Source of the DNA: Candidatus Giovannonibacteria bacterium
GTDB lineage: Bacteria > Patescibacteriota > Minisyncoccia > JACPKW01 > UBA11713
Direction of reading: 5' to 3'
DNA length: 64,000 nt
Assembly: GCA_016176285.1 (NCBI GenBank)
Contig: JACOXM010000002.1
Location: forward strand, 10,917 to 74,916
A program made the position numbers and the translations under genes. The notes beneath the pieces were generated by a model, which worked only from the letters and a program-made list of their open reading frames with translations, was not told the DNA's origin and searched no databases. Positions 11,643-59,648 of this stretch are shown here, in pieces; position 1 is the stretch's first letter; every line of letters begins with the position of its first letter.

Positions 11643-11650
11643 TTCGTTTC

Positions 11651-13315: not shown

Positions 13316-16300
13316 CTACATAACCGAGAACTTGTAGAGAGTCTTGTCAGCCGTTGTACCTGCGGTCAAGGTCTTTTCCGTGGATGATAACGTAATGTGT
13401 GCAAGTTCTGGATACGCTCTGAAGATTCTAACTCCGGAAGAACTTGTGTCTGTCGCGCTCGGGCTTATGTTTGAGCCTGAAGCAACGCCTACACCGTAGT
13501 TTCCGTTAATTCCAACGTTCTGTCCGTCGTAATCCACTTTCAGGAAATCACCGGACTTGTTGTTATCACAAGAGTTACAAATATTCGAGATATCTCCTTT
13601 TACAACCACTACTTTCGAACTGTCTTTAGTAATTCTGAATGTTCCGGAAGCAATTGCTGAAGATGTAGCAAAGTCTTCCTGGGCTGTCGTGAATTCGGCT
13701 GTTCCAAGTGATACGCCGTCGGTTGTCCATAGTGTAACGCGCCTGCCCACAAGGTCATTTGCCGTGTTTGAAGCAGTGCCAGTAAGTTGAAGGGCTACTT
13801 GCCTCAAATCAACATCTTCGTTAGCCGCAGAGAATCTAATTCTCGCGAGCTCAACGTTCGTGGCTCCTGCATTTACAACTTTGTATCCTGGGCTGTTTGC
13901 ATCCAATACAGCGGTTAATGTCCCGCCGGAAGATGCGGCCATGATCTGACCATTTGCCTCTGTCAAAGTTTCAACAATAGTCTGTCCGGAAGTTACACCA
14001 GTGGCGCCGGTAAATGCAGCCTGCTGACCGTTGTCCAGACCCCAGAGGTATGCACCAGTGGATCCGGAACGAACATTACATTTCAAGCTTAATGTCTTTG
14101 CTGTTCCTTTCGTTAAGGTCAAGCCAGTTCCATCAAACGTAAATGTAGTTGAAGAAGATTCAGCTGTCGGGTCAACTATATTCGAAGAATTGACTACAAC
14201 GGGCCCGTCGTAAAGTTTACAACCAGTTAAGTCATTGGCTGCTCCAGTTGTCGGGGCATGTGCAACACCATAAGCCAATGGGATAGTAGTAATTCTGACA
14301 TCCTCACCGGAAGCTGTTGCGTCAAATGTGTATCTGGCGAATTCGAATTGAGATGAGCCAGCAATAACGCTTTGCGCTATCGGTACGGACTGAACGCTAA
14401 CCGATAAGGCTCCTGATTTAACTGTCATTCTCGGTAAGTTTAGAGCCGAAGATGGGCTTGGAGTAATAGTATTTGATGTCGTCAAGCCTCTTACTGTCCC
14501 CCACCCTGATGGAGTGGTTGAAGCAGCAATTGTTGTACCGCCATCAATATCCGATCCTATTTTTGCTTTAAGTGTGTACGTGTGTGCTCCTGTCGGGAAT
14601 GTAATGGTGTCAGTGAATGGAATTGTTCCTTCATTTCCGCTGCTGTCAGTAGCTGAACCATCTACCGGTCCCGCAACCACTGTTCCTGTTTCATCCACCA
14701 GTATGGCATTCGTAATATCGTCAACATCGTCGTTTGCTCCCTCTCCAACCAATGAAACCTGGAAGGTTATGCTGGCAACTGAGATTGGTTCTCCCTTTAC
14801 GTCAACCGAAAGTGCTCCTAACGGCTGGCTCAAAAGATTAACTCCAATGTTTTGCGCGGCAACCGCAGTGGCGACTGAAACGTTCATAGTTCCAGTGTTT
14901 ACGGTTACTTGTGCCGCATCGTAGTAGTAGTCATCCGCATTGTTGAAGGCGGCTCCATCGGCAGAGGCGGCAGAACCAGCTAGAGGAGGAATAATTCCGA
15001 AGCCCCAGTTTGGTCCGCTAGCGCCCTTGCTAATTTCAGCCCCGTAAAGGCCGATATCAGTTCTCTTCGCGATGTCGAAGTCAACAGTTCTTGAAGAACC
15101 CCCGACGATATCACCTTTAATGGAAATATCTACGGAGAATCCTTTGTCAACTAGGATTCCGTTTCCTGGGAATGTTGATGTGTAATATTTACCGTCTGAA
15201 CTGACCACCGTGTCGTAAGCGGTTCCGTCAACGTAAGTTTTTACGTTGGCAAGGTCTGCAGTTCCGACAGAACCTGTCTGGTTCCAGCGAATACTTGATA
15301 GGTAAACTTTTTCAGCCGATCCGGCTGTGATTTTAACTGACGAGAAGGTATAGCCGGTAGTTCCAACATTCTTTGTCTGTGAAGCTCCCGGGTCCAATGA
15401 TCCTCTGGAAGTTGTTACAGATCCAATCGTTAGAGCGGCGTTTATTGTGTGCGCAGCTCCTGTTATCGGAAGTGATCCCGATACGGTTGCCGCCGTGTTT
15501 ATTCCAATTACGGAGAACGTCGCGACGTTTCCAGCGTCGTCAGCCAAGTTGGTCTTGGTGTCCATGTTGCCGCCAATCGTAAGCGTTCTTGTTTGACCAG
15601 CTTTTACGACAAACGGATCTCCAACTACCGCCTGGTGAGTGGAGTTCAAAGTCTTTGCGATTCCGATCTGCGTGCCATTTTCGTCTACAAGCGTTACTCC
15701 AATGAATGCGCCATCGGCAGCAGGTCCACCTCTTTCGACTGTGACCCCGTTTACGGTTATATCGCCATCATTAGAAGCAGTGAGTTTGAATACCGTGAAA
15801 GGTACTCTCGCCGCCGCTCCCGGGGCGATGTGATTAGCGGGCTGCGTTCCAGCGCTAATCATTAAGCCAGTGCCAACAATTGTTGGTGTTGGCGTAGCGC
15901 CGTCGGTCGGGATAGGTGTTGGTGTAGTTCCTCCTGATACAAGTGATACATATTTAGCTCTTGAAATTGGTCCGAAGTATCCAGCCGCAGGGGTAATTCC
16001 ATAATTTTGCTGCCATTTTCCAACGGCTGTTCTTGTCAATGGACCAAAGTAAGTTGTTTCATTTCCGGGGGAGCCAGCGCCGGAAGCAGCAACCGTGAAC
16101 CCCGAAGAGTTCAAATATTGCTGAAGGCATGTGACATCAGAACCGGTAGAACCAACTGTAAGACTTCTTGTGAAGTTGCAGTTTCCAGTCTGTGCTGGAG
16201 GCGTTGTGGTAGGCTGGCCACGCAATGACGCATTTACGTTATTGATAGTGGCTGCATCAGCTCCAAACGACTGAAGCAATTGAAGAATCGACTGGATTTG

Positions 16301-16432
16301 CGATTCCGATAAGGCGGCGTTTGCCACCAACGGAACAGTTAGTGAAGCTCCCGACAGAAATATTGCTGTCGAAAAGCTTAAGAAAGTCACGGCAATTTTA
16401 TTCGCCATGCCATTCTTTGTTCGAATACTCAT
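13316..16432 (-). CDS. Giant secreted cell-surface protein with N-terminal peptidoglycan-binding domain and long Thr/Gly/Ser/Ala-rich beta-rich region
   Basis: Signal peptide, then a PG_binding_1-like segment (GSTGSDVTCLQQYLN...YFGPLTRTAVGKWQ), then ~900 aa of low-complexity T/G/S/A/V-rich sequence. Visibly GC-richer than its neighbours. Confidence 0.65.
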   Translation of the reverse strand: MSIRTKNGMANKIAVTFLSFSTAIFLSGASLTVPLVANAALSESQIQSILQLLQSFGADAATINNVNASLRGQPTTTPPAQTGNCNFTRSLTVGSTGSDVTCLQQYLNSSGFTVAASGAGSPGNETTYFGPLTRTAVGKWQQNYGITPAAGYFGPISRAKYVSLVSGGTTPTPIPTDGATPTPTIVGTGLMISAGTQPANHIAPGAAARVPFTVFKLTASNDGDITVNGVTVERGGPAADGAFIGVTLVDENGTQIGIAKTLNSTHQAVVGDPFVVKAGQTRTLTIGGNMDTKTNLADDAGNVATFSVIGINTAATVSGSLPITGAAHTINAALTIGSVTTSRGSLDPGASQTKNVGTTGYTFSSVKITAGSAEKVYLSSIRWNQTGSVGTADLANVKTYVDGTAYDTVVSSDGKYYTSTFPGNGILVDKGFSVDISIKGDIVGGSSRTVDFDIAKRTDIGLYGAEISKGASGPNWGFGIIPPLAGSAASADGAAFNNADDYYYDAAQVTVNTGTMNVSVATAVAAQNIGVNLLSQPLGALSVDVKGEPISVASITFQVSLVGEGANDDVDDITNAILVDETGTVVAGPVDGSATDSSGNEGTIPFTDTITFPTGAHTYTLKAKIGSDIDGGTTIAASTTPSGWGTVRGLTTSNTITPSPSSALNLPRMTVKSGALSVSVQSVPIAQSVIAGSSQFEFARYTFDATASGEDVRITTIPLAYGVAHAPTTGAANDLTGCKLYDGPVVVNSSNIVDPTAESSSTTFTFDGTGLTLTKGTAKTLSLKCNVRSGSTGAYLWGLDNGQQAAFTGATGVTSGQTIVETLTEANGQIMAASSGGTLTAVLDANSPGYKVVNAGATNVELARIRFSAANEDVDLRQVALQLTGTASNTANDLVGRRVTLWTTDGVSLGTAEFTTAQEDFATSSAIASGTFRITKDSSKVVVVKGDISNICNSCDNNKSGDFLKVDYDGQNVGINGNYGVGVASGSNISPSATDTSSSGVRIFRAYPELAHITLSSTEKTLTAGTTADKTLYKFSVM

Positions 16433-46846: not shown

Positions 46847-46878
46847 TCAAAAACCGCTCCTTTAAAGAGCGGGTTTTT
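46847..46878. terminator. Bidirectional rho-independent terminator (serves the HTH gene on + and rnpB on -)
   Basis: ACCGCTCC-TTTAAA-GGAGCGGT 8-bp hairpin flanked by CAAAAA and TTTTT. Confidence 0.6.
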
Positions 46879-46886
46879 GATTTATA

Positions 46887-47294
46887 GATACGCCTGTAAG
46901 CCGAATTCTGTTCACCTTCGCTTTTGCAAAGGATCGGCGATCATTTATCTCGAATCCATCTTGCGATGGAAGCTGAAGCGGCACTTCCCACTCGATATAT
47001 CGATATTCGAAATTTCGAGCGGGACACGGCCTTGCACCGGGCAGGGTTTTCCACGATATGGCGTTGCCGACATATCGATCCCGCTTTTAGCGGGAACTTT
47101 TCACCTTTTATCTCGACTTTATATCAAGATTAGTATTGTCTCTGTGGCACTATTCCCGTCCCGACTTGCATCGGGAGGTGGGCGTTACCCACTGCCTTTT
47201 TCATCAACAAGAAGGGATCTTGCCCTCGGCTTGTCGAAGGGTGTTCGGACTTTCCTCTCTAATTTTTTGAATTAGAGCGATCGCCAAGCGTATC
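46887..47294 (-). ncRNA. rnpB: RNase P RNA, bacterial type A
   Basis: The minus strand contains GAGAGGAAAGTCCGAACACCC (the P4 5' strand GGAAAGUCCG) preceded by a P3 hairpin, the 3' conserved GGTGAACAGAATTCGGCTTACAGG (ACAGAAxxCGGCUUA), and a P1 helix GATACGC/GCGTATC. ~410 nt. Two spurious plus-strand ORFs overlap it. Confidence 0.8.
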
Positions 47295-47301
47295 AATTCG
47301 C

Positions 47302-47329
47302 ATTATATACAAAAAACAGAAATTGTCAA
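47302..47329 (-). promoter_or_regulatory. Strong sigma70-like promoter for rnpB
   Basis: Minus strand reads TTGACA (47329-47324), a 16-nt spacer, then TATAAT (47307-47302), ~8 nt upstream of the inferred P1 5' end. Confidence 0.55.
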
Positions 47330-48468
47330 ATCTTCTTAGACCTTCTTAAAAAAGCCGGAATTGAATCCCATTCGGAGCTTTCCGGTTCGGAATTTTCCGC
47401 TTCTTCCGGGGAATTAGATTTTTCAATTCTGGCAAACTGCGAATCCTGGGAAAAAAGCGAAGCGTTTCTGCCGAAACTGTTAGGAAATCCCGAAGCAATT
47501 ACCGTTACTTTAACCTGCCCGTTCTTAAGCCTGTCGTCGCGTACCGCTCCGAAAATAATTTTCGCCTCCTTGTCCACATTTTCCGTTATCAGTTTGGCGG
47601 CTTCCTGCACTTCCCACATCGAAAGGTCTTCCTTTCCTGAAATCGTAAATAAAACTCCCTTAGCCCCTTCGGCGGAAACTTCAAGCAAAGGCGAATGTAT
47701 TGCGAGGCGCGCCGCTTCCTGCGCGCGGTTTTTACCCTGGGAAATTCCAATTCCAATTATTGCCGAACCTGAATTGGATAAAACCGTCCTCACGTCCGCA
47801 AAATCAACATTTATTATTCCCGGCGTTATGATCAAATCCGCAATTCCTTCCACGGCTTGCCGTAAAACTTCATCACACATCGCAAAAGCCTCCAAAAAAG
47901 GAGTGTCTCTTTCGACTATGTTTAAAAGCCGGTCATTGGGGATTACAATCATCGCGTCCACTGCTTTTCGCAAACGCACCAACCCTTCATCCGCAATACT
48001 TCTTCTGACATCTCCTTCGAAAGAAAATGGTTTCGTTACAATCGCAATCGTAAGCGCTCCTAAATTTTTTGCCGTCTCCGCAACAATCGGCGCACCTCCC
48101 GTACCGGTGCCGCCTCCAAAACCGCACGTTACAAATACCAAGTCAGCGCCCCTGACAAGTTCCTCAATTTCGCGCTTTGATTCCTCCGCAGCCATTCTTC
48201 CCAAATCCGGATTCATCCCCGCGCCAAGCCCCCGTGTAACTTCTTTCCCCATATGGAACTTTCTCGTAGCTAGGGAATTGTGAAGATCCTGGGCATCCGT
48301 ATTAATGGAAATAAAGTCCACTCCCTTTACTTTGGAACGAATCATGTGGTCCACTGCATTCTGTCCGGAACCACCGACTCCGATCACTTTTAGCCTTGCG
48401 GCTGTTTCAAATTCTGGCTTAACTTGCGGCATAATATTAAATCGTATACCTAAGAGTAGCCTCCCCAA
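47326..48468 (-). CDS. ftsZ: Cell division GTPase FtsZ
   Basis: Tubulin signature GGGTGTGGAPIVAE and IKVIGVGGSGQNAV. The true start is probably the internal Met (MPQVKPE). Confidence 0.9.
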   Translation of the reverse strand: MGRLLLGIRFNIMPQVKPEFETAARLKVIGVGGSGQNAVDHMIRSKVKGVDFISINTDAQDLHNSLATRKFHMGKEVTRGLGAGMNPDLGRMAAEESKREIEELVRGADLVFVTCGFGGGTGTGGAPIVAETAKNLGALTIAIVTKPFSFEGDVRRSIADEGLVRLRKAVDAMIVIPNDRLLNIVERDTPFLEAFAMCDEVLRQAVEGIADLIITPGIINVDFADVRTVLSNSGSAIIGIGISQGKNRAQEAARLAIHSPLLEVSAEGAKGVLFTISGKEDLSMWEVQEAAKLITENVDKEAKIIFGAVRDDRLKNGQVKVTVIASGFPNSFGRNASLFSQDSQFARIEKSNSPEEAENSEPESSEWDSIPAFLRRSKKI

Positions 48469-48508
48469 AAAAACCAGTCAAGGAGGATTTTTGAATTTAA
48501 TTTTTTAT

Positions 48509-48808
48509 CTATTTTACGCCCAAAACCGTTCTCAAGCGCAAGATTTCTTCTGATATAGCGTGTTCGATTTTGTCCGCGAGTCCGGGAACCCTTACGGCAA
48601 TTTGGGCCACCGTTTCCTCTAGATCAACTCCTTCATGAAGAGCATTTTGAATTTTGACCGCGTCTTCATCCGAAATATTCGAAACCAAAACGCTTATCAA
48701 AACTTCATTGAGCCTCTCATCAACTTTTTTTAAAATCTCCTCCCGGTCGTTCTCCGGAAGTTTTTCGAGATTCAAAGCTTCGGCAAGTTTATTTAGGTTT
48801 CTTGGCAT
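48509..48808 (-). CDS. Hypothetical small acidic protein
   Basis: ORF only. Overlaps the upstream ORF's end by 20 nt on the same strand. Confidence 0.3.
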   Translation of the reverse strand: MPRNLNKLAEALNLEKLPENDREEILKKVDERLNEVLISVLVSNISDEDAVKIQNALHEGVDLEETVAQIAVRVPGLADKIEHAISEEILRLRTVLGVK

Positions 48809-51647
48809 TTCTTCTTTCGTTAATAATATCGCGAATCATTCCTAATCTCGGATTATAAGCTTCTAACATTCCATCGATTCTAATAGTTCTTTCGTCTTTC
48901 TGACCTGCTTTAACATTTTTGTCCGCCGGAATTGCATCTCTAATATCACTTATCAAACCATCCCTCTCCCCTCTAAGTCTTTGCTCTTCAGTGGAAAGAT
49001 CGAGATCACTCATGCTTTCATATCTAGCTTTTTGCTCCGATATTTCTTTTACTCTTTTTTCTTCCAGATCTTTTAGCAATTCCTCCGAACTTTTTTCGGG
49101 TATTTTTTCTTCGTCTGAATTAATAGGTATCTTAACCGTTTTAGACTTTTTTATTTTTATTTGCTCCCTTTTCTTAGTAGCAATTTCGCCAAAAGAAGCC
49201 GTTAATGGCGGGGAATATTCGTTTTTCGTTCCGATATTTATCGCATCCGCAACACCCCTTATCGTTCTTTCCATATCTTTCATTTCTATATCCTTATTTA
49301 TTTTATTATTTTCGATATTAACGGTCTTAGAGTTATAATCGTTTCCCATTTCAGGATTTCTCAAACCCTCGTCTCCTTCGTATGGCGGCGGCTTTTTAAA
49401 TTGCTCATCAATCGTCGCTCCCGAGTCGCCAAGCCCATATTGCGAACCGAACGCATCACCCATTCCCCGCCTTAAGGCGCGCGCTCCGTCCTCGTCTTCG
49501 ATCCTATTCTCAACCTTCAGATCCTTCCCCTCGTTTCCCATATCCGGGCTTCGTGTTTCTTCATCCGGATGAAAGGGGCGCGAAGAAGCCGCTTTTTTAA
49601 AATCGCTGAAGAGTTCCCTATTCATTTTTTTCATCTGATTAAAAAAACCTTTTCTAATTTCCGCGTGATTTTTTAAATAGTTCTGCAAGGGCTGCGGTAT
49701 AGATAGATATATCGGTTTATTTTTTGCATCCTTATTCTTATTAATGACCCATTTTCTTTCCTCCTCCGGAAGCGTTCCATACCACTCAACAACCTCGCCG
49801 TAATTTCCCTTCCTCATATAATTTCCGGACGAGTGATCAAGAACATAATATTCTATGTCCCCCGGCATTAATTTATGAATTTTTCCATCCCGCTCGGTTT
49901 TCAAATCAATATTTTTTCCTTCAAGATATTCATAAAGCGGGTCTTCTTTTACATTATCCAAATACTCATCGGACTCGCGGACGGTTTTCATGGGCTCGTC
50001 GAAGTATGGTTCATCGGATTCAATATCCGATTCTTTCAGATCAATAATCTCTGGTTCCGGTTTTTTCTTTTCCTCTGTTTTTCTAAAACTTTTTACCTTT
50101 TCTTTCGCTCCATTATATATTTCTTTAGTTTCTTCTTTGTACGCGTAAACTCCTGCCGCACCGATTCCCGCCCCGTAAACCAAATACTGCTTCCAATTTT
50201 GAGATAGCCAGGACTCCGCCGCCGCCTCGACTGCTTTTTTCTCCCCCGCACTTGCGTACGCTATTTCCGGAGGAATACTTTTTACCGCTTCTTTCGCCGC
50301 GGCAAGACCCTTTTCCTCTGCCTCCTTTAAAATCGCGCCCGAAAAATCATTTGCGGAGTTATATTTCAGGTCATAATTTGTGACTTCCTCCCACACCCTT
50401 TCTCCAATTTTTGAAACGTATTCATTTTTAATGTGTTCCTTCCCGGCGTCAGTTAATAATTTCGCCTTATCAATCGCGGATGAGATTTCTCCTCCGGTTA
50501 ATTGGAAAGGGTCACCCGGGCGAATAACTTGCCCCCCGAAAAGATTTTTCAGAGAATCTTCGGCGTAAATAAGCTGGCTTTTATCAAGATTTAGATCAAT
50601 GCCCAATTCCTGTTTTTGCGAAATATAATCGTGTATTAATTTTCTTGAAATGTGCGTAAATCCATCGCCCTTATCCGCAACTGCGGTAAAAGTTTCTCCA
50701 TCGAGCCCCGCGGCACCCGCAGATTTTACACCCTCGACAGTTTCTCCGTATGAACTATATGCAATCCCCTTCGTATCTTCGCTGATGTTTTCGCCTATGC
50801 CGCCTGCAATAGCCTCCTTCGGACCCGCGGAAACATCACTATGAGAGAAATAATCCCCGACAATTCCCGCGACGTAAGCCCCTGCCGCCCCAACCACGGC
50901 TCCCTTCAAAGCGCCCTTCGCAACTTTTTTCCATTTATTTGAATCTAGCTTTAATTCTTTTCTAAGACTTTTAAATAAATCCTCCTTTTCTTTGCCCATC
51001 TCCGGCAATATTTTTTCCATCCGCCCCAGCTCCAAATATTTTTCAAGTTTTTCCTTGGTACTGGCGTTTTCCGCGCCGAGGCCATCCACAATTTTTTGAA
51101 GTTCATTCTGATTTTCTGCAAATTCCCGAATTTTCCTAGACTCCCTAACATAAATCTTGCTACCTTCCCAAATCGCGCCGGCGGAAGCTCCCGCGAGGAT
51201 GCCGTAGCCAAAAGCACTATTCGCGATCCATCTTACCGCCGATCCCGCCGCCATGCCGCCTAAAAAAGTTCCTATTTTTGATCCAAAAATTTTTTTCTTC
51301 TCTAATTTGGCAAGCGCTTCCTCCGGATTAAAATTGAAATTTTTAATTTTTTCTTTGGCGTTTTTTCCGAACGCCAAAAAATCTCTACCAAGTTCTTTCC
51401 AAGCCTCTTTTGCCCCTATCCCGAGGCCGCTCTCATCAAAAAAATCTTTAATTTTGCCTTGCGTATTTTTTATTGACGCGAAAAATTTGCCCCACCTACC
51501 ATCCTTTTTTTCTTCCTCGATCCGAAATTCCGCATCCTCGGCGTTATTTTTTTCTTCTTCGGTCAGCGGTTTAACCTTCTCCGCGGCATGTACCCTTTGT
51601 CCTTTTACATCTTCAAAATTATTTGCGTTCGGAGATTCTACTGTCAT
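48789..51647 (-). CDS. Large (952 aa) membrane protein with three Gly/Ala-zipper hydrophobic segments and long charged low-complexity regions
   Basis: Segments GGMAAGSAVRWIANSAFGYGILAGASAGAIWEG, GALKGAVVGAAGAYVAGIVG and YLVYGAGIGAAGVYAY. The rest is K/E/D-rich. No catalytic motif recognised. Confidence 0.4.
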   Translation of the reverse strand: MTVESPNANNFEDVKGQRVHAAEKVKPLTEEEKNNAEDAEFRIEEEKKDGRWGKFFASIKNTQGKIKDFFDESGLGIGAKEAWKELGRDFLAFGKNAKEKIKNFNFNPEEALAKLEKKKIFGSKIGTFLGGMAAGSAVRWIANSAFGYGILAGASAGAIWEGSKIYVRESRKIREFAENQNELQKIVDGLGAENASTKEKLEKYLELGRMEKILPEMGKEKEDLFKSLRKELKLDSNKWKKVAKGALKGAVVGAAGAYVAGIVGDYFSHSDVSAGPKEAIAGGIGENISEDTKGIAYSSYGETVEGVKSAGAAGLDGETFTAVADKGDGFTHISRKLIHDYISQKQELGIDLNLDKSQLIYAEDSLKNLFGGQVIRPGDPFQLTGGEISSAIDKAKLLTDAGKEHIKNEYVSKIGERVWEEVTNYDLKYNSANDFSGAILKEAEEKGLAAAKEAVKSIPPEIAYASAGEKKAVEAAAESWLSQNWKQYLVYGAGIGAAGVYAYKEETKEIYNGAKEKVKSFRKTEEKKKPEPEIIDLKESDIESDEPYFDEPMKTVRESDEYLDNVKEDPLYEYLEGKNIDLKTERDGKIHKLMPGDIEYYVLDHSSGNYMRKGNYGEVVEWYGTLPEEERKWVINKNKDAKNKPIYLSIPQPLQNYLKNHAEIRKGFFNQMKKMNRELFSDFKKAASSRPFHPDEETRSPDMGNEGKDLKVENRIEDEDGARALRRGMGDAFGSQYGLGDSGATIDEQFKKPPPYEGDEGLRNPEMGNDYNSKTVNIENNKINKDIEMKDMERTIRGVADAINIGTKNEYSPPLTASFGEIATKKREQIKIKKSKTVKIPINSDEEKIPEKSSEELLKDLEEKRVKEISEQKARYESMSDLDLSTEEQRLRGERDGLISDIRDAIPADKNVKAGQKDERTIRIDGMLEAYNPRLGMIRDIINERRNAKKPK

Positions 51648-51669
51648 TAATATTATTAAATCACAAAAA

Positions 51670-52056
51670 TCACCCTAAGTCATTCAAATCCTGTGCAATG
51701 CCTTCTTTGATTACGGTCAATTCTTCTTCTGGAACGGAGAGAAGACTTGTAAAAAATTCAAAGCGCTCTTTATCGTCTAAATTCGGGTTTAAAAGCATTT
51801 CTGCTATTTTTTCTCTTTCCTCTTCGAAAATAAAAACTCTATAATTTCCGCTCCGAAGATTACCCACTACCGCCCAAAAATAATTTTCATCGTCCGCCGT
51901 AATTTCTTCGGATAAAATCGTGCCACCTTCGTCCCTCATCAGGGAAACCGGCCCCGAAACCAATCTTTTTATTAAAAAATTGCCACCAAGATTCTCATCT
52001 TTTAAAAAACTCCCCAAATATTTTTCTTCCTTGTCGAATATATATGCTTTCATCAA
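51670..52056 (-). CDS. Hypothetical protein
   Basis: ORF with a 4-nt overlap to the downstream gene, which suggests an operon. Confidence 0.3.
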   Translation of the reverse strand: MMKAYIFDKEEKYLGSFLKDENLGGNFLIKRLVSGPVSLMRDEGGTILSEEITADDENYFWAVVGNLRSGNYRVFIFEEEREKIAEMLLNPNLDDKERFEFFTSLLSVPEEELTVIKEGIAQDLNDLG

Positions 52057-53072
52057 TATAACTTTTTATTAGGATTGCCTAATTTTATTTCGGGAATATT
52101 CTGTTTATTTTCTTTATCAAGGTAATCACCAACAAGCTCTCGATCCTTTTTAGGGAGGGCATTTCCGTAGAATAAACTAACTTTTACTATTTCAGCCCAA
52201 TATTCATTGGTTTTATGCATCAACTCCGCTTTTTTATCCTTATTATTAATTGCCTCCACATATTCGGAAAAGTAGCGATCTTTCGAGGTGACCCTCTCTA
52301 TTGTTCTTGCAAACAAATCGATCCTGGATGGCATATCGCGTCTTCTATTCACCCAGCTATTCGCATGGCCCATTTCATGATGAAGAGTAGCTATGACTCC
52401 AGTTTCGGTCCAATAATTTTTATAATAACTAATTTTAGATCTGTGTTTTTCATTATTGAAATTAAAGTTAGCTATCGGTATTCTTCTTTTGACCCCATAC
52501 TCTTTTAACATTTCTAAATCTTTATTTATAAAATTTATTTCATCCACGCTTTCAATCCACGAATGGGGGAAATGATTTAATTCCTCCTGGATAGTACGGG
52601 GATCAATGCCAATTTTCCCGGCTTCGATGGAATTAATATTTGGAAAATTTAATATCTTATCCTTGAATCTCCCCTTTACTTCTTCATCCTCCCCAGCAGT
52701 TCCAAAATAAATATCAAAATTGTCGCGGCCAATTTTTTTTTCGATATATCTCGCTTGTTTTATAGTTTTTTCGATTTTGTTTCTTTCTTTGACATCCATC
52801 CCGCCTTCTTTAACAGATTTATCCGCGTTTTTCACATATTCCGTAACGCTCTGCTTTTGCCCTAGCATCCCCTCAACGGCCTCCCTATTAAAACCGATAG
52901 TCGCCGGGGATATGAGAGACGAAGCCACATAAATAGAAGAAATTGCCACTGTTCTTGAAATCGCCCTTTTAAACCTTCCTCGAATTGAAGTAATCGCCCC
53001 TTCACGTTTTTCTTTTCCGGATGGCTTTTCCGGTGTTACTGGCGTTATATCTCTAGCATTTTCGAAACTCAT
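52053..53072 (-). CDS. Membrane-anchored putative zinc metallopeptidase (HExxH)
   Basis: N-terminal TM (VAISSIYVASSLISPATIGF) and an ATLHHEMGHANSW zincin-like HExxH motif. Confidence 0.45.
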   Translation of the reverse strand: MSFENARDITPVTPEKPSGKEKREGAITSIRGRFKRAISRTVAISSIYVASSLISPATIGFNREAVEGMLGQKQSVTEYVKNADKSVKEGGMDVKERNKIEKTIKQARYIEKKIGRDNFDIYFGTAGEDEEVKGRFKDKILNFPNINSIEAGKIGIDPRTIQEELNHFPHSWIESVDEINFINKDLEMLKEYGVKRRIPIANFNFNNEKHRSKISYYKNYWTETGVIATLHHEMGHANSWVNRRRDMPSRIDLFARTIERVTSKDRYFSEYVEAINNKDKKAELMHKTNEYWAEIVKVSLFYGNALPKKDRELVGDYLDKENKQNIPEIKLGNPNKKLY

Positions 53073-53073
53073 A

Positions 53074-53325
53074 TCATCTGTAAATGTCTTTTCTATGACC
53101 TAATCTCAAAACAAAAATATTATCGCCGGAAACATCAAAAATAATTCTATAATCCCCGATTCGAAAACGGAATTGCCCAAATTGACTGTCTTTGAGCTGT
53201 TCGGAATAACGAAGTGGATTTTTTTGAGAAATAAAATATTCGAGTTTTGCGCGAATCTGATCTCTTACCTTACGATCGAGCTTAAGCCAGTCTTTTTTTG
53301 CCCGATTCGTAAAAAATACTTTCAT
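53074..53325 (-). CDS. Type II toxin, RelE/ParE family
   Basis: MKVFFTNRAKKDWLKLDRKVRDQIRAKLEYF...FRFRIGDYRIIFDVSGDNIFVLRLGHRKDIY is the canonical RelE/ParE pattern. Start corrected to the Met 4 nt after the antitoxin stop. Confidence 0.75.
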   Translation of the reverse strand: MKVFFTNRAKKDWLKLDRKVRDQIRAKLEYFISQKNPLRYSEQLKDSQFGQFRFRIGDYRIIFDVSGDNIFVLRLGHRKDIYR

Positions 53326-53329
53326 CTTT

Positions 53330-53575
53330 TTATTTATATTTAGTTTTTTTGAAACGTCCCGTTTTAAAGTCGAGTTCAAATAATTTCCCATGTGCTATAT
53401 CCCGCCTTCCTTCTTTTACGGCCTTCTGAAAAGATAAAGAATTTCGCATTTCCTCTTCTTCCATTAATAGTTCCAATTTTTTCCAATCTTTTAGGGAAAC
53501 TATAACTACCGGCTCTCCTTTAAAGTGGGTTTTCTCAATTTTTCTATTTAACATTGTGATGTTTCTCGAAGCCAT
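53330..53575 (-). CDS. Type II antitoxin, Phd/YefM-like
   Basis: GEPVVIVSLKDWKKLELLMEEEE resembles the Phd/YefM core. Sits immediately upstream of the toxin. Confidence 0.6.
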   Translation of the reverse strand: MASRNITMLNRKIEKTHFKGEPVVIVSLKDWKKLELLMEEEEMRNSLSFQKAVKEGRRDIAHGKLFELDFKTGRFKKTKYK

Positions 53576-53670
53576 ATATCAACTATAGACGAAAAATCCC
53601 CCAAAGTCCAACGCGGATTTTTGTCCGCGTCAGAGGGAAATAGAAATCCTCACTCTCAAAACTTATAGAC

Positions 53671-54921
53671 TTATTTTTTTCTCAACAATTCTTTACTTTG
53701 TTTATAATCAGAAACGTGTTTCCTAATTTCTTCCGCGCTCACAGAGCCATCTATTACAGATCCGTCCTTATTGACATCATAAACCCCAAAAGACGTAATA
53801 CCTATAATTTCCGGTTCGCCTTCGCTATCTAATAAGATTAAGGGACCTCCGCTCATTCCCGGTATATTGTCACCCTTTTTAGCAGAAAGGGAGGAGTTAT
53901 TTTCTTCGCTTGGAGGAATGTCAAATACCTGCAATTTTGAAAATCTCTTATCAGCTTTATGTAAAATCGCGTTCGGCTTAGAACGTTCGGTATAATCAAA
54001 TAAGCCTCCTGTGATTTTTTCTTTGCGTTCGAATTCTTTTATGGAAACTTCAAATGGAAAGCCGAAAGGATGCCCCACCGAGGCAAGTTTACTTCCGCGC
54101 TTTAATTTGCCTACGGATTTTTCCGAAGCGATTTTCAAGGCTTTTGCAGTTTCCCCGCCTATAGTTTTTTCAAAATTCTCCTCCGGCTCCACTATAGCGA
54201 GATCATTTGCCTCATCGGAAAAAACCCGTCGTCCTTTAAAATTTTTACCATCGATTGTAAAAAAAGAAAAATCATTTTCGTCGTTCATCGCAACATGATA
54301 ATTTGTAATGATGACTTTGCGTTCGTCCGCATCAATTATCGCTCCGCTTCCAGCAAATTTATTTCCTTTGAATAAGATAACCGTTCCCTTCATAACTTTC
54401 TGTATTCTTTCCATATACCTATGTGCCTCTTTGGGATGACTGTAGATAAACTCCTTTCCTAAAATGATATCCGGCTTCGAAAAATAAGGAACCTCACCAT
54501 TGGCAGCCTTACTAATCGCCAGCATTCTAACCACATCAGGTAAAATTTTGTAAGTCGTTTCTAGCTGCGGAGAAACTTCCAAACCGCCGCGCTCTTCGAA
54601 TGCTTTATTCACACGCTTGAATAACTCCATATTTTCATCGTCCAAAATCGTACGTTCAAATTCTCTTGGGTTCGATTGAGCTACTACGTATTCCTCCGTA
54701 GTTTCCGGTGCTACCGCTTCTTTTTTTGCCGGTGAGAAAACCGTAATTCCCGCCAAAACCAAAGCAGCTCCTAGGCGTGAAATTTTTTTTAAGAATGAAC
54801 CATCTTCAGGTTTTTCTAAAATCTGGGCAAACCTTTCCTTTAATTCAATGATCTCTCTCGACTCCGTTTGTGAATTTCTTTCCGGACCAGTTTCTTGTGG
54901 TTTTTCTGGATTAAACGCCAC
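53671..54921 (-). CDS. Membrane-anchored trypsin-like (S1/chymotrypsin-fold) serine protease
   Basis: Catalytic triad contexts: TNYHVA (His), ANDLAIV (Asp) and GMSGGPLIL (Ser, the GDSGGP-like motif). N-terminal TM. Confidence 0.6.
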   Translation of the reverse strand: MAFNPEKPQETGPERNSQTESREIIELKERFAQILEKPEDGSFLKKISRLGAALVLAGITVFSPAKKEAVAPETTEEYVVAQSNPREFERTILDDENMELFKRVNKAFEERGGLEVSPQLETTYKILPDVVRMLAISKAANGEVPYFSKPDIILGKEFIYSHPKEAHRYMERIQKVMKGTVILFKGNKFAGSGAIIDADERKVIITNYHVAMNDENDFSFFTIDGKNFKGRRVFSDEANDLAIVEPEENFEKTIGGETAKALKIASEKSVGKLKRGSKLASVGHPFGFPFEVSIKEFERKEKITGGLFDYTERSKPNAILHKADKRFSKLQVFDIPPSEENNSSLSAKKGDNIPGMSGGPLILLDSEGEPEIIGITSFGVYDVNKDGSVIDGSVSAEEIRKHVSDYKQSKELLRKK

Positions 54922-55056
54922 TTTCTTCAGTTAAAAATTTATCGATGGCTTCGGCCATCTCCATCAAAGAGATTTCGTCCTTTTTTAATTTCTCTGCCAA
55001 TTCCTTGGAAAGTTTTCTTGCTTCTTCCTCTTTTTTTAAATTTTTCTTGTCCATAA

Positions 55057-57498
55057 TTATCCTGAATTAATCAAACTCGCCCCTGCATGCCTAATTCTAA
55101 TCTCCTCCTCCACTTCCTCGCGGGGGCGGGCGTATTTGGAGCGGGAAAGCTGTTTAATATATTGCGCCATTTCGGGGTTGCCGGTTTCGGGGCGGATTGT
55201 TTTAAGGTTAAACGGCTTCGAGGTTTGGCCGTCAATTAAAAGTTTCATGTAAGCGTTAAAGTTATCGATATTTAAGAGATCGTAAGAATTAAATACCGGC
55301 TCGAATTGTTTTTCCATATATTCCCCGTCGTCGGAGCCGATTCTAAAAGAGCAAATCGAACCTACGTTTCCAAAGACAGCTTTTTTAATATCCTCGTCGA
55401 GCTGTCCTATAAATTGATGCACTAGAGTCAGATTCAATTTATACTTTCTCGCCTCGGAAAGAATTGTGGCAATGGATTTTGTGGTCACGTTTTGGAACTC
55501 ATCAATATATAGATAAAAATCTTTGCGGTCCTCCTCCGCGCTGTCTACGCGGGATAATGCCGCCATCAGAATTTTCCCGACCATTATTAATCCTAGGAGG
55601 CTCGCGTTAAGTTCGCCAAGCCGCCCCTTGGATAAATTCAACAAAAGAATTTTTTTCTGGTCCATCGCCTCGCGGACATTGAACGCTGATTTTTCCTGCG
55701 CGATAATCGGGCGCATAATTTCGTTCGCGAGGAAAGTATCGAATTTCGAAACCACATAAGGAACCATATTTTGCAAAGATGCTTCGCCCCCCGCCTTCTC
55801 CGCGATCTGCTTCCAAAAAGTGTCAACGACGATATTTTTCGAACGCGAAAGCTTATAGTCCCGGTATGCCTTATCCGCGAGCACCCGTTCGATTTCAAGA
55901 AGAGTATTTCCGGATTCCGGGTCCTCCATTACAAGCAAAGTCGCGTTTCTGAAATATTGCTCGAACATCGGCCCGCCAGAGACCGACATATTGAAAAGTT
56001 TATTGAAAATTTCCAAAAGTTCATTCACTATCATAGTCTTCTGTTCGGGACGCATAGGATCATATTCGAGCATGTTGAGGCCCATCGGATATTGAACATC
56101 ACCCGGATCAAAATAAATTACATCTTCGGCTCTTTCTTGTGGTATTAATCCCAAAATTTTTTCTATCAACTCTCCGTGCGGATCAATTACCGCAACACCT
56201 TCGCCATTTTTAATATCTTGCGCGATCATATTATGCATAAGCGCGGATTTCCCGGTGCCGGTCTGCCCGATGATATAGAAGTGCCGCCTCCGGTCGTCTT
56301 TTTTTATGTAAACATTTCCCAGTTCGCCGCGGAAAGAACTATTCCCCAAAAGAACGCCCTCCCTCGGCATATTTACGGGCGGGGTCGCTTCGCGGGCCTT
56401 AAGCATCCTAACCTGCGGGGCGGCTTTTTTTGAATAAGGGAAATGATACAAGCTTGAAATTTCCTCCACATTCATAGGCATCGCCTCGCTTTCATCAAAG
56501 AATCGGAAAGAAAAATTTTCAGTTAATTTTTTAAGCCCTGCGCCAAAAACATTTTTTATTTTAAAGGCATTCCCCTCGGGAATCGAAAATTGGTAAAACC
56601 CGGCTTCGAACTCTTTCATTATCCTGTCAACTTCCTCGTTATTTTCGGCGGAAACTATCAGGCGTACATTTACGTCGAAAGTGATTTTAGAAACTTTTTC
56701 CTCAAGAAGCTTCACCAATTCCTCGTCGTAAACGGGGGCATTGGTTTTTTCTTCTGGTTTAGGTTTTTTCTGCTGTTTGAAAACGTCTATCGTGTGCTCC
56801 GCGATATTCTTCTCACCCAAAACATCCCGCCTTTTCTTCCCTTCTTTTAACCTTTCTATAACTTTGTGGATGGGCTTCTCTAATTTTTTCCCCGCCGGGC
56901 GCAAAACTATCTGCAGCGCCGCACCCTCTCCGAATTCCTTGATTTTTGAAAAAGCGGAAGTGATGGTCTCGACCGGATCGGACTCAATTTTCTGGTAAGT
57001 TTTAATGGGAAGAAATTTATTTCTCTCTAACCCCAAAAGTGCCCCGCGAGAAACTCCGTTCGGATGAAAAATATTATAATCCTCCACTTTTTCGATTTTC
57101 GCGTCGGGGTAAGCGCCATGAATCTGGCTTTCAAGCAATTTCGCAAATTTCCTTGGAAACGCTACATAAAAAAAGATCTCCGACCCGTCGTTGTGCGCGG
57201 CGAGTTCCAGCGCGAAAGAATTGCCCTTGCCGAAAATTTCCCCGAAAATAGTTCCGCTCTTTAAACCCGAAAGTCCCATGAGAAATTTTTCCATATGCGC
57301 GATGAAATTTTTCCTGGCTTCCGTTGGATTTTCGTTTTTTTCTTCGCGGTTTTCCGGAAGCGAAACTAAAAAAAGCTGCTCCGAGAGGCTCGAAGAGATC
57401 GAATTTATCCGCTTATATCTTAAAAAAACGTATAAAATTAAAAGGATCGGCAGAGCCGCGAAAAACAAAATCGTGAGAAGCAGATAATCAGAACTCAT
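55057..57498 (-). CDS. Membrane-anchored FtsK/HerA/VirB4/TraG-superfamily P-loop ATPase (813 aa)
   Basis: N-terminal TM. Walker A HFYIIGQTGTGKS followed by VAVIDPHGE (DPxGE, as in HerA/TraG-type ATPases). Walker B FYLYIDEFQN. Post-Walker-B segment KYKLNLTLVHQ. Confidence 0.5.
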   Translation of the reverse strand: MSSDYLLLTILFFAALPILLILYVFLRYKRINSISSSLSEQLFLVSLPENREEKNENPTEARKNFIAHMEKFLMGLSGLKSGTIFGEIFGKGNSFALELAAHNDGSEIFFYVAFPRKFAKLLESQIHGAYPDAKIEKVEDYNIFHPNGVSRGALLGLERNKFLPIKTYQKIESDPVETITSAFSKIKEFGEGAALQIVLRPAGKKLEKPIHKVIERLKEGKKRRDVLGEKNIAEHTIDVFKQQKKPKPEEKTNAPVYDEELVKLLEEKVSKITFDVNVRLIVSAENNEEVDRIMKEFEAGFYQFSIPEGNAFKIKNVFGAGLKKLTENFSFRFFDESEAMPMNVEEISSLYHFPYSKKAAPQVRMLKAREATPPVNMPREGVLLGNSSFRGELGNVYIKKDDRRRHFYIIGQTGTGKSALMHNMIAQDIKNGEGVAVIDPHGELIEKILGLIPQERAEDVIYFDPGDVQYPMGLNMLEYDPMRPEQKTMIVNELLEIFNKLFNMSVSGGPMFEQYFRNATLLVMEDPESGNTLLEIERVLADKAYRDYKLSRSKNIVVDTFWKQIAEKAGGEASLQNMVPYVVSKFDTFLANEIMRPIIAQEKSAFNVREAMDQKKILLLNLSKGRLGELNASLLGLIMVGKILMAALSRVDSAEEDRKDFYLYIDEFQNVTTKSIATILSEARKYKLNLTLVHQFIGQLDEDIKKAVFGNVGSICSFRIGSDDGEYMEKQFEPVFNSYDLLNIDNFNAYMKLLIDGQTSKPFNLKTIRPETGNPEMAQYIKQLSRSKYARPREEVEEEIRIRHAGASLINSG

Positions 57499-57891
57499 TT
57501 ATTTCAGTTTTCTCGCGTCCAAAAGCTTTTGATAATATTTATCCGCCAAAGTGTCATGGAATTCGTCCATTAAATGGGGGTTATTAAGAGACCGGGCAAC
57601 CTTAAAGGCGGAAGCCAGATCTTTTGAAAGCGCCACATTCACGAGCCCTTCGATTATTTCGTGATGCTTTTTTTCCTGTAAATCCGCCGAAGTTTTTTTT
57701 GCATCATCGTCGGAAATAGTTGATCTTGCCGGAGGCGGCAGAGTCGTCGCCGTGGGAACTTCTTTAATTACGTCTTTTACAATTTCCCTCTCTTCTTTTG
57801 ACTCCACGCCGGAAGCCACAAGCTCGCGTTTTTTTGCCTCGAGCCGCTCCTCAAGCCATTTTATATCTTCATGTATTTGTTCCTGTGCCAT
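57499..57891 (-). CDS. Hypothetical coiled-coil protein, translationally coupled to the ATPase gene
   Basis: Its stop abuts the ATPase start codon. Charged, helical composition. Confidence 0.3.
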   Translation of the reverse strand: MAQEQIHEDIKWLEERLEAKKRELVASGVESKEEREIVKDVIKEVPTATTLPPPARSTISDDDAKKTSADLQEKKHHEIIEGLVNVALSKDLASAFKVARSLNNPHLMDEFHDTLADKYYQKLLDARKLK

Positions 57892-57924: not shown

Positions 57925-58482
57925 ATGGAAAAAACACCAGGCCCTGAACAGCCACCCACACAGGAGGAGATTATTCAAAAAGAGGCCTTAAGAACTGAAA
58001 AAATCTCATCTAACTTATTAAATATAAGCACCGATAGGGAAAAGAATAAATTTTATCCTCTCTTAAATTTAAATTTTGACTTAAAACCATATATAAAAGA
58101 AATTATTCCGGAGAAAAAAGGGAATGAAATACAAGGTGAAAGTGAACTAAGGGATGCGCAGAACAAAACTATAAGTCTCATCTTTGAATCTGCCGCGCAG
58201 ATCGCGATGGATAAAAAATCGCAGATAAAAATAGTTCGAGATGATCCTAATTCTCTAATGGCCTTATACCAAGCAATGAATGTGGGACAAAGATATTATG
58301 AAGAACTTAGCCATAGCCGACCGGAAGAAATTAAATCGGTTTTGGAAAACCTACTCATTAAGAGCAAAAGAAAAGAAAAACCAAAGGAAAATGAAATTAT
58401 AGAATTTTCTAAAATACTTACTAAGGCACAACTATCATTGAGAAAAAGAATAGAAGCTCTGCGCGGATATCAAGGCAGATAA
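57925..58482 (+). CDS. Hypothetical protein
   Basis: ORF only. Divergent from the ATPase operon. Confidence 0.3.
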   Translation: MEKTPGPEQPPTQEEIIQKEALRTEKISSNLLNISTDREKNKFYPLLNLNFDLKPYIKEIIPEKKGNEIQGESELRDAQNKTISLIFESAAQIAMDKKSQIKIVRDDPNSLMALYQAMNVGQRYYEELSHSRPEEIKSVLENLLIKSKRKEKPKENEIIEFSKILTKAQLSLRKRIEALRGYQGR

Positions 58483-58484: not shown

Positions 58485-59648
58485 TTACGGAATCAGCGAT
58501 CTCAGCCAGGCGGAAATTTTTTGGCGCCACTCCGACGGTTTTTTCGATTCCGGCAGAGATTCCTGATCTAAGCCTATGAGCGCAGCTCCCAGGGCGGAAG
58601 ACCAAACCGGATCCTGCAATCTGTGCCCGCTTGCCAGCTCTTCACATGTCCCAAGAGTTACAGGAAGCCTTAATGCGTATTTTGAGAATTCTTCAAGCCC
58701 CGTGAGCTTGGAAGCACCGCCGGACAAAACCACTCCACCCGGCAAAAGCCCCTGCCGCCCAATTTTTTTCAGGTGATTATCTATAAGCTCGAAGGTGTCT
58801 TCAAGCCTCGCTTCAACAATATGCTGAAATTTTTTCTTTGCCTGCGCCGTTTCGTCCGGAAGCTTCATCTCCATTTTAATTTCCTCGGCTTTATCCAGGC
58901 TTATTTGAAAGCCAAGCGCGATGTCATTCGTAATGTGCGATCCCCCATACGGGAAAACCGCGACGGAATAAGGCATATTCTCCTCAAAAACTGCTAGATC
59001 GGTCGTATCTGACCCGATATCCAAAACAAGCGCTCCCGCTTCCTTCTGCCTCTGCGTGAGTAATGATCTCGCCGCGGCTATCGGACCCGGTATTACGTCA
59101 TCAATTATTACGCCCGCCTCCTCAACCACAGAAATCATTTCTTTTAGCGGCTTTAACATAGAAGTTATGAATAACACCTCCGCCTCCAAATTTTCTCCCC
59201 TGATACCGACGGGGTCCCTGAAGGCCAATTCCGAATCAACGCTATAATTAAGTCCGTATGTATCTAAAATTTCCTTGTTTGATAAATCTTTGGAGGAAGG
59301 CTTCGCCTGCGCCAAAACCCTTTCTACGTCATAATGCCCAACCTCCCCGGATGCTTGGGCAATAGCGATACGCGCCCTTACTTTGTTAAAACTTATTGCC
59401 GGGGTTCCAAAAGCCAAAAAGGCATGTTTAAAAGGGATCCCGGAGAATCTTTCAACTTCCTCAATTGCCGACTTTAACCTTTTTAATAGAAGCTGTGGGG
59501 AATTAACCATCCCTCTCCTAACCCCCTGCGAAGGCACTAGGGAAGCGCCCAAAATATGAATGCCGGAATCAGGCGACTTCCTTTCCGCAGTTAATACTTT
59601 AATTCCGTGTGAACCGATATCTAAAACGTGGACTATATTCCTAGGCAT
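58485..59648 (-). CDS. Actin-like ATPase, FtsA-like (alternatively PilM-like)
   Basis: HVLDIGSHGIKVL phosphate-1 motif, then VLDIGSDTTDLAVF and GVVLSGGASKLTGL. Confidence 0.55.
   Translation of the reverse strand: MPRNIVHVLDIGSHGIKVLTAERKSPDSGIHILGASLVPSQGVRRGMVNSPQLLLKRLKSAIEEVERFSGIPFKHAFLAFGTPAISFNKVRARIAIAQASGEVGHYDVERVLAQAKPSSKDLSNKEILDTYGLNYSVDSELAFRDPVGIRGENLEAEVLFITSMLKPLKEMISVVEEAGVIIDDVIPGPIAAARSLLTQRQKEAGALVLDIGSDTTDLAVFEENMPYSVAVFPYGGSHITNDIALGFQISLDKAEEIKMEMKLPDETAQAKKKFQHIVEARLEDTFELIDNHLKKIGRQGLLPGGVVLSGGASKLTGLEEFSKYALRLPVTLGTCEELASGHRLQDPVWSSALGAALIGLDQESLPESKKPSEWRQKISAWLRSLIP

Follow-up and report, generated by a model that had tools for sequence, protein, structure and literature searches.

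Patescibacteria, or bacteria of the Candidate Phyla Radiation (CPR), live as obligate epibionts, with largely uncharacterised machinery for interacting with their hosts, and in Saccharibacteria type IV secretion system (T4SS) genes are essential for epibiotic growth. In what follows we describe an ATPase of this phylum that is encoded in an unexpected place, within a block of same-strand genes separating ftsA from ftsZ in a Candidatus Giovannonibacteria bacterium (CPR/Parcubacteria; assembly GCA_016176285.1, contig JACOXM010000002.1, positions 10,917-74,916); this stretch of 64,000 nt is referred to as the window. The canonical Patescibacteria VirB4 belongs to T4SS gene clusters found close to dnaA/dnaN, and the survey that records this counts Giovannonibacteria among the VirB4-positive groups (PMC12102498). 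The same survey reports 5,713 homologues of type IV coupling proteins (T4CP) that are VirD4-like. They are spread over 2,918 of the 3,035 Patescibacteria genomes, with only 148 encoded close to virB4, and in the authors' view their function may be exapted; the role of these orphan ATPases, which lie far from a T4SS in nearly every genome, is an acknowledged open question (PMC12102498). Judging from its Pfam matches and NCBI names, the ATPase described here is most likely one of the 5,713. The reading that we favour, with a probability of roughly 0.6, is that the block is a mosaic, lineage-specific island, and that its ATPase would form a ring feeding an envelope channel encoded elsewhere.

The preliminary description of this DNA had placed ftsA and ftsZ on the same strand about 10 kb apart, and open reading frame (ORF) coordinates and domain matches agree with it: the distance is 10,017 bp, with the block genes in between. 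Every ORF it had named was recovered on the minus strand at the same position, and the tight packing it described is also seen, as the pairs 130/ATPase, RelE/339, 339/128, 128/952 and 952/99 are separated by 0-22 nt or overlap. From ftsA to ftsZ, the features are:

58485-59648, minus strand: ftsA, left flank of the insertion (FtsA 3e-25, SHS2_FTSA 2.9e-12)
57925-58482, plus strand: orphan 185-aa ORF filling the gap between ftsA and the 130-aa gene (GC 0.344; hypothetical according to NCBI)
57499-57891, minus strand: 130-aa soluble, acidic, helical protein whose stop abuts the ATPase ATG; partner of the ATPase by conserved adjacency
55057-57498, minus strand: 813-aa single-pass membrane-anchored P-loop ATPase (transmembrane helix 6-24, DUF8128 about 40-350, motor about 380-800)
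54944-54959, minus strand: terminator-like hairpin within the 135 bp that follow the ATPase gene (from a consensus scan only)
53671-54921, minus strand: 416-aa membrane-anchored trypsin-like protease of S1/HtrA type, with no PDZ domain (Trypsin_2 4e-11)
53330-53575, minus strand: 81-aa basic antitoxin candidate, Phd/YefM-RelB-like, with no Pfam match of its own
53074-53391, minus strand: RelE/ParE toxin, a 105-aa ORF with a probable start at M23 (53325), giving 83 aa
52053-53072, minus strand: 339-aa basic protein of an uncharacterised family, with a signal-anchor-like N-terminus and a zincin-like HExxH...EY C-terminal domain
51670-52056, minus strand: 128-aa acidic protein (pI 4.4), overlapping the 339-aa gene by 4 nt
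48789-51647, minus strand: 952-aa K/E-rich protein that evolves fast, with a conserved central domain (about 300-440), three Gly/Ala-zipper segments and a variable C-terminal half
48509-48808, minus strand: 99-aa acidic helical protein (pI 4.8), overlapping the 952-aa gene by 20 nt
48453-48481, minus strand: ftsZ promoter-like element TTGACT-17 nt-TACTCT, recognised by junction comparison, its function inferred
47326-48468, minus strand: ftsZ, right flank of the insertion (Tubulin 1.8e-46, FtsZ_C 2e-29)

That the ATPase belongs to the VirB4/VirD4/HerA clade, as first proposed, is a point on which Pfam and fold comparison agree. Pfam returned T4SS-DNA_transf (6e-10; 38.9 bits against a cutoff of 20.1) and TrwB_AAD_bind (1e-9; 38.0 bits against 20.5), both above the gathering score, together with DUF87 (2e-9); the TrwB_AAD_bind match is limited to the P-loop region at 392-448. 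Overall, the sequence profiles are weak and restricted to the P-loop domain, with VirD4/TraD/TraG models ranking first and those of HerA and VirB4 weaker. The Walker A (GQTGTGKS at 411) and Walker B motifs are intact and the arginines are conserved. Since the one strong transmembrane helix (6-24) is followed by R-Y-K-R, most of the protein is expected to lie in the cytoplasm. An AlphaFold2 model (pLDDT 82.5) comprises a long N-terminal transmembrane helix, an alpha/beta N-domain and a RecA-type motor with a helical insertion at 485-613. Searching with the full-length model did not separate VirB4, VirD4 and HerA; a model of the N-domain (DUF8128) alone did, and matched the VirB4 N-domain fold and not the HAS barrel of HerA. 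Thus, a VirB4-like domain of 320 residues sits between the single transmembrane helix and the motor.

How, then, does this protein compare with the described families? With VirB4 it shares both the Walker A/B motor of VirB4/VirD4/HerA type and the N-terminal domain, but it departs from VirB4 in sequence profiles, which favour VirD4/TraD/TraG, and in lacking a T4SS gene neighbourhood. No Pfam CagE_TrbE_VirB or AAA_10 match was found, the NCBIfam VirB4 models scored below threshold (VirB4_plasma 3.8e-5, 21.6 bits against a cutoff of 590; TraC 0.004), and the family has its own conserved soluble partner of 130 aa; the ATPase is not the canonical Patescibacteria VirB4. Coupling proteins of the VirD4/TrwB/TraD/TraG/DotL group usually have two transmembrane helices where this protein has one, and none possesses the VirB4-like N-domain of about 320 residues. 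NCBIfam T4CP models scored far below their cutoffs, and the association with a relaxase and a T4SS that marks coupling proteins is missing from these loci: there is no relaxase in any ATPase neighbourhood examined, no VirB3, VirB6, VirB8, TrsD or pilin gene by the ATPase in more than 90 homologous loci, and no T4SS cluster in the window. In contrast to HerA, the protein is membrane-anchored and its N-domain is VirB4-like, with neither a HAS barrel nor a NurA companion; NurA, Sir2 and DUF4297 partner genes are all absent beside it. Membership of FtsK/SpoIIIE is likewise not indicated, as there is no FtsK Pfam match and no gamma or multi-transmembrane domain. A literature search on DUF8128 found no paper.

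Two groups of relatives were seen alongside the family. One is a shorter T4CP-like paralogue of 430-620 aa, which begins at the P-loop domain and is encoded about 6-9 kb from ftsA in Parcubacteria chromosomes (L074 708-2573, minus strand, 621 aa; L055 4-1050, minus strand; comparison loci are labelled L throughout). Its identity to the ATPase's C-domain is 31-43%, and it carries a TrwB_AAD_bind match longer than the ATPase's as well as TraG-D_C, and in L074 a treble-clef zinc finger; similar proteins of 430-580 aa occur on eight IMG/VR contigs classed as viral (L172-L179). The other consists of distant homologues (19-26% identity) in 55 Firmicutes phage genomes, all annotated as hypothetical, among them Bacillus phage G gp156 (JN638751), Geobacillus phage TP-84 (KY565347, L089 5728-7992), CP-51 and SP-10. 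The TP-84 homologue, encoded in the early region and preceded by a small membrane protein gene, has no transmembrane helix, and its match spans the DUF8128 region. PHROG 5156 matches the ATPase over its full length (6e-81) and leads only to uncharacterised Firmicutes-phage proteins.

The ATPase and the 130-aa protein upstream of it form a pair whose distribution extends far beyond the island. More than 7,600 ATPase homologues were found, 53-79% identical across Giovannoni-, Sung-, Colwell- and Tagabacteria, and the neighbourhoods that we compared (more than 90 loci) include 80 metagenomic loci with ATPases 46-63% identical to that of the window. Directly upstream of the ATPase, L001, L003, L004, L005, L008, L086, L087, L171 and L180 all carry a homologue of the 130-aa protein, as do at least 46 of the 80 metagenomic loci, a tblastn count that is a lower bound; in the neighbourhoods obtained by exact look-up, a homologue of 128-149 aa is always found directly upstream, often with a 4-nt overlap. 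Matching nothing in Pfam, NCBIfam, PADLOC or PHROGs, the 130-aa family is recognisable by a C-terminal motif, L..A..KG...A...A....P...D..HD.L...Y..L. The genes around the pair are also recurrent: about 20 of the metagenomic loci have gtrA and/or dnaX on the downstream side, about 20 have a divergent PMT_2 glycosyltransferase gene on the upstream side, and the PMT_2/gtrA/dnaX context is seen in about 20 of these loci and in L003-L005, L086 and L171. The last two are Giovannonibacteria, with ATPases 66-67% identical to the window's, and still retain this context. Together, these comparisons show that the ancestral arrangement is PMT_2 followed by 130aa-ATPase-gtrA-dnaX, and that the pair is vertically inherited across Parcubacteria. 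In a neighbour-joining tree (the FtsZ, TPR protein and ATPase trees carry no support values) the island-type ATPases group in a single clade, with the Giovannonibacteria ATPases of the ancestral context as its sister, and ATPase divergence parallels that of FtsZ, the TPR protein and MurJ. The initial view that none of the block genes is a housekeeping gene was therefore wrong for these two, which are a conserved core pair of Parcubacteria. PMT_2, gtrA and dnaX are absent from the window, hence no "empty" PMT_2-gtrA-dnaX site exists in the 64 kb, and none of the S1, 339-, 128-, 952- and 99-aa genes lies near the ATPase in the 80 metagenomic loci. The hairpin at 54944-54959 suggests, as a sequence prediction, that the 130-aa/ATPase pair can be a transcription unit of its own. 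The numbering of the NCBI locus tags HYT00_00770-HYT00_00785 implies that two features lie in the interval from the S1 protease gene to the 130-aa gene, where we saw just the ATPase ORF; an extra small coding sequence or pseudogene may be annotated by NCBI in 54921-57499.

In one clade, the pair is accompanied by the 952- and 99-aa genes. The large protein had been described as a membrane protein with three glycine-zipper helices; its three Gly/Ala segments are real, and membrane insertion is only putative, with the segments reaching just about 1.5 on the Kyte-Doolittle scale. It has no match in Pfam, NCBIfam, PADLOC or PHROGs and nothing meaningful in the PDB. A word-indexed search returned four homologues, and in L006, L008, L087, L170 and L180 homologues are 28-51% identical and keep the zipper segments and central domain; L170 is the closest relative carrying one, of 953 aa. 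Another homologue, P0123 (1348 aa), has a HopA1 domain (PF17914, 6e-13) inserted at 751-924, which suggests that the 952-aa family may be a modular carrier of effector-like domains. The 99-aa protein, with no family or PDB match, is 53-82% identical across the same five loci and always directly downstream of the large protein. We considered whether the two could be a polymorphic toxin and its immunity protein, an option rejected because the large protein's C-terminus is free to vary whereas the 99-aa protein is well conserved (53-82%).

In L180/L181, the order is DUF192, then 134aa-ATPase-911aa-100aa, away from ftsA, with an ATPase 69% identical to the window's; the match between the 911- and 952-aa proteins has an E-value of 1e-44, and the 100- and 99-aa proteins are 56% identical. 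A further contig, P0016 (ATPase 70% identical), has the order 128aa-ATPase-651-81-81-121-865-98 upstream of dnaG-rpoD, known from gene sizes only, homology being unconfirmed. Because the 130-aa, ATPase, 952-aa and 99-aa genes occur together at a second site, by DUF192, the four behave as a relocatable cassette. The comparison shows this cassette at no fewer than two chromosomal sites where the ATPases are at least 69% identical, and the ATPase copies seen there lie off the gtrA-dnaX site. The suggestion of a secretion-like apparatus thus gains some weight from the linkage of the ATPase to the 952- and 99-aa genes at a second site, and is not supported where it would join all nine genes in one system. 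Arrangement also recalls the effector and chaperone pairs of type III, IV and VII secretion systems, in that here a conserved small acidic helical protein comes after a large, modular one that evolves fast, both beside a secretion-type ATPase; the likeness is one of arrangement only, as no secretion signal, chaperone family or channel was identified here.

Between the ATPase and the 952-aa gene lies variable cargo, which in relatives also includes assorted orphan genes. The membrane-anchored S1 protease proposed earlier is borne out by Trypsin_2 (44.4 bits against a cutoff of 27.6), partial DegP/HtrA matches, a hydrophobic anchor at 47-65 and the motifs TNYHV at 206, NDLAIV at 239 and GMSGGP at 355, which supply the triad His206/Asp240/Ser357. 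Having no PDZ domain in its predicted sequence, it is not a canonical HtrA. Homologues are found only in L006 (37% identity) and L170, and are absent from L001, L008 and L087. The 339-aa protein has no Pfam or PDB match, and its family has 319 clusters in a library of 1.84 billion proteins. The HExxH motif at residue 232 is real and conserved across the 46 members that we aligned, with E233, H236, E290 and Y291 invariant and H232 present in at least 90%; three of the 46 give faint SprT-like or MPTase-PolyVal matches. Homologues of the 128-aa protein, for which no family or PDB match was found, come after the HExxH gene in L001, L008 and L087 and are always paired with it. This 339/128 pair is present in the window and these three loci, and none is detectable in L006 or L170; L180 has none of the proteases. 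Distant members of the HExxH family are also met outside the island, for example in L088, where a 126-aa gene following the HExxH gene is about 20% identical in a forced alignment, went undetected by BLAST and was not scored as a homologue; no ATPase lies in the part of that contig examined.

The toxin-antitoxin pair can be regarded in the same light. The toxin scores above family cutoffs (ParE_toxin 1.1e-12, 48.7 bits against 23; RelE_StbE 8.6e-8, 32.6 against 27.9; PHROG RelE-like 3e-19), and the small gene directly upstream, ending 4 nt before the probable toxin start, shares 53% identity with the one that precedes ParE in L001; its 76-aa equivalent in L087 gives weak PhdYeFM/RelB-like matches. 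The Phd/RelE pair is thus as first described, and in layout and scores it is an ordinary type II module of the Phd/YefM-RelE/ParE kind. It is cargo, one of several interchangeable pairs in the island (HicAB and ParE in L001).

The site itself was examined by comparing 80 ftsZ loci from species-representative Parcubacteria genomes, 68 of which have ftsA upstream on the same strand. The gap between the two genes is at most 400 bp in 58 of the 68, 0.4-2.1 kb in nine, and 7.6 kb in one (L009); in L006 and L008, more than 8.9 kb of block genes lie upstream of ftsZ. As the genes adjoin in 58 of 68 relatives, the block is a lineage-restricted insertion, in keeping with what the preliminary description had supposed. 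In the window, ybeY, yqeY, the gene for a HIT protein, hisS and lepB lie upstream of ftsA, and RNase P RNA, a TPR membrane protein, murJ and lepA downstream of ftsZ. Three Giovannonibacteria-type relatives (L010, L012 and L013) have ftsA adjoining ftsZ; L012, with FtsZ 86% and FtsA 74% identical to the window's, and L010 keep the flank order on both sides (lepB-hisS-HIT-yqeY-ybeY-ftsA-ftsZ...TPR-murJ, on to lepA in L012), and L013 keeps only its upstream part. The block was seen only in the window, L001/L002/L009, L006, L008, L087 and L170, which group in the FtsZ and TPR trees with the blockless L012 nested among them. These comparisons show that ftsA-ftsZ adjacency is ancestral in Parcubacteria, and that one Giovannonibacteria sub-clade holds an island of 7.6-10 kb between the ftsA stop and the ftsZ promoter. 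The latter is represented by an element, TTGAC-17 nt-TA(G/C)(G/T)CT, lying about 20 nt before the ftsZ ATG in the window, L001, L008, L010, L012, L013 and L087; it adjoins ftsZ with or without the block and has the island on its upstream side. Since homologues align from residue 12-13, ftsZ most likely begins at the ATG at 48432 and not at the TTG at 48468. On the ftsA side, relatives have just 28-40 bp where the window has the 185-aa ORF, which has no family match in the scans and no homologue among the fetched loci.

Other Parcubacteria carry unrelated small inserts at the same place, and for this reason the ftsA-ftsZ spacer appears to be a permissive insertion site. These are a fused MNT-HepT (nucleotidyltransferase and HEPN RNase; L048 7039-7887), an SPFH/Band-7 protein with an OMP-decarboxylase-like gene (L052 8049-9671), and a recurring single-pass membrane protein (L014 6174-6833, with a weak PsbP_2 match; L080 4690-5397; L016 9490-9900).

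Composition agrees with a mosaic island. GC is 0.44 for the ATPase and 130-aa genes and 0.42, the window mean, for the 952- and 99-aa genes; it falls to 0.33-0.375, within the lowest 6% or so of 1-kb windows, for the 339-aa gene (0.369), the 128-aa gene, the toxin-antitoxin pair and the 185-aa ORF. Pfam, NCBIfam and PHROG scans and the window ORFs revealed no integrase, transposase, relaxase, replication, capsid/tail, VirB4-cluster or VirB6/8 genes. The flanks of the block have no significant direct or inverted repeats, and the nearest tRNA is 8.8 kb away. The ten block proteins were also scanned against PADLOC-DB v2, as per-protein hits and not as rule-based calling of whole systems: there was no complete system, no match for seven of the ten, and isolated weak matches to mad8 (1e-15), HerA, LmuA (4e-7, from the protease) and CARF_RelE.

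Some features lie outside the block. Directly downstream of ftsZ is rnpB (RF00010, class A, 171.8 bits, full length; 46881-47296, minus strand), the only hit of an Rfam scan, and a 132-aa plus-strand ORF at 46877-47275 is consequently spurious; its tblastn "homologues" are rnpB, on the same strand relative to ftsZ as in the window in L001/L009/L012 and inverted in L006-L008. The region from ftsZ to rnpB/TPR is variable, with 4.2-6.3 kb of unrelated DNA in relatives without the ftsA-ftsZ island (L012 11110-15330; L010 11116-17430) against about 0.5 kb in the window. L170 has an IS200/IS605-type Y1 transposase between murJ and lepA (11156-11848) that is not in the window. Elsewhere in the window, a 1038-aa ORF (13316-16432, minus strand) has PG_binding_1 (5e-9) as its sole recognisable feature and is a large uncharacterised envelope protein.

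Taken together, we picture the ATPase as a membrane-tethered ring on the cytoplasmic side, in which the protein's own transmembrane helix takes the role that VirB3 plays for VirB4. Using ATP, it would hand a polymeric substrate - protein, possibly DNA - to a channel encoded elsewhere, most plausibly the chromosomal T4SS of monoderm type that most Patescibacteria carry. In this clade, the 952-aa protein would be the best candidate client and the 99-aa protein its chaperone or adaptor, whilst the two membrane-anchored proteases (S1 and zincin-like, with signal-anchor N-termini) would act outside the membrane, and the toxin-antitoxin pair may merely stabilise the island as an addiction module. 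An insertion between ftsA and ftsZ would be tolerated because ftsZ keeps its own promoter. The location is probably without a division function, and nothing ties the island functionally to division.

Several observations weigh against this picture. Across more than 90 loci the ATPase is accompanied by no channel, pilin, VirB3/6/8 or relaxase gene, so that its link to a T4SS is one that we purely infer, and what speaks for the 952-aa protein as client and the 99-aa protein as chaperone is adjacency and acidity. L001 and L009 have the island without the 952/99 pair, and common descent could explain much of the co-occurrence. By its domain content, the shorter L074-type paralogue, which has no N-domain, may be a better candidate for a true coupling protein, and the phage homologues, which occur without any T4SS, indicate that the family can work independently. 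Moreover, the nesting of L012 among block-bearing genomes complicates a history of single gain, as it needs either one gain and a clean loss, or two gains.

Could all nine genes instead form one apparatus, in which the ATPase exports or inserts the 952-aa protein, the proteases mature it or remodel the surface, and the acidic proteins serve as chaperones? The co-directional, closely packed or overlapping genes are what such an apparatus would look like, as are the three small acidic proteins (pI 4.4-5.8), the HopA1 domain in one 952-like homologue, and the recurrence of S1-952-99 in L006 and L170, of 339-128-952-99 in L008 and L087, and of ATPase-952-99 at a second and probably a third site (P0016, on gene sizes only). 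However, L001 does without S1, 952 and 99, L008 and L087 without S1, L006 and L170 without detectable 339/128, and L180 without the proteases; the cargo genes are not near the ATPase in the 80 more distant loci, a hairpin follows the ATPase gene, GC is mosaic, and every co-occurrence falls inside one narrow clade. We thus hold a single nine-gene apparatus to be unlikely. Very unlikely, in our view, is a decayed integrative and conjugative element, which was one of the origins first proposed, or a prophage or other mobile island inserted in the spacer. The T4SS-type annotation of the ATPase, its full-length PHROG 5156 match and phage homologues, the toxin-antitoxin module, the low-GC segments, the patchy spread (with L012 lacking the block inside the clade), the different sites of the cassette and a spacer that takes other inserts, such as MNT-HepT in L048, all lend themselves to it. 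Yet the scans gave no recombinase, relaxase, VirB6/VirB8 or structural gene, and no flanking repeat or tRNA, the ATPase has the GC of the genome mean, and its divergence tracks FtsZ, TPR and MurJ in a tree congruent with descent from the ancestral-context orthologue and with that of the organisms.

Functions in defence or division fare worse still. An anti-phage island, with a HerA/VirB4-like ATPase, protease effectors and a toxin-antitoxin module for abortive infection, had also been entertained; PADLOC gave isolated weak matches alone, the ATPase pair is near-universal, in a single context and syntenic with gtrA-dnaX in most Parcubacteria, unlike patchy defence genes, and both proteases appear extracytoplasmic, across the membrane from where effectors of abortive infection should act, so that we find the idea highly improbable. 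We give just as little credence to a functional position, with an ATPase of the FtsK-HerA superfamily recruited to the division cluster to handle chromosome or DNA at the division site: the position between ftsA and ftsZ is seen in a single sub-clade, the sister lineages having the cassette by DUF192 or dnaG (the latter on gene sizes only), the ATPase has none of the FtsK hallmarks, ftsZ has an independent promoter, and the VirB4-type N-domain points to an ancestry in secretion machines. A bolder possibility, one that we think quite doubtful though less so than the mobile remnant, is that the DUF8128 ATPase and 130-aa protein are an unrecognised, Patescibacteria-wide VirB4 paralogue independent of T4SS, and the engine of a self-contained cassette for export or insertion of the 952-aa protein, with the 99-aa protein as chaperone and processing by the proteases. 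If this were true, a giant Gly-zipper protein, pore-forming or effector-carrying, would be exported or inserted into the cell's own or the host's envelope, and with this cassette CPR bacteria would have a minimal system, new of its kind, for secretion or host interaction.

To return to the island with a ring ATPase serving a channel encoded elsewhere, parts of what we describe are already known: the toxin-antitoxin and S1 protease families are, and DUF8128 or "T4CP-like" proteins are catalogued, if uncharacterised. What goes beyond the existing survey (PMC12102498) is the orphan ATPase of VirB4 type with its partner, the linkage to the Gly-zipper/99-aa cassette, and the permissive ftsA-ftsZ spacer. 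One family of orphan ATPases, DUF8128, has an architecture of VirB4 and not VirD4 type and comes with a dedicated small partner, and the 952- and 99-aa proteins are concrete candidate clients, physically tied to it in one clade. Current views are not overturned by these results; rather, the vague notion of an "exapted T4CP" in Patescibacteria becomes a testable hypothesis.

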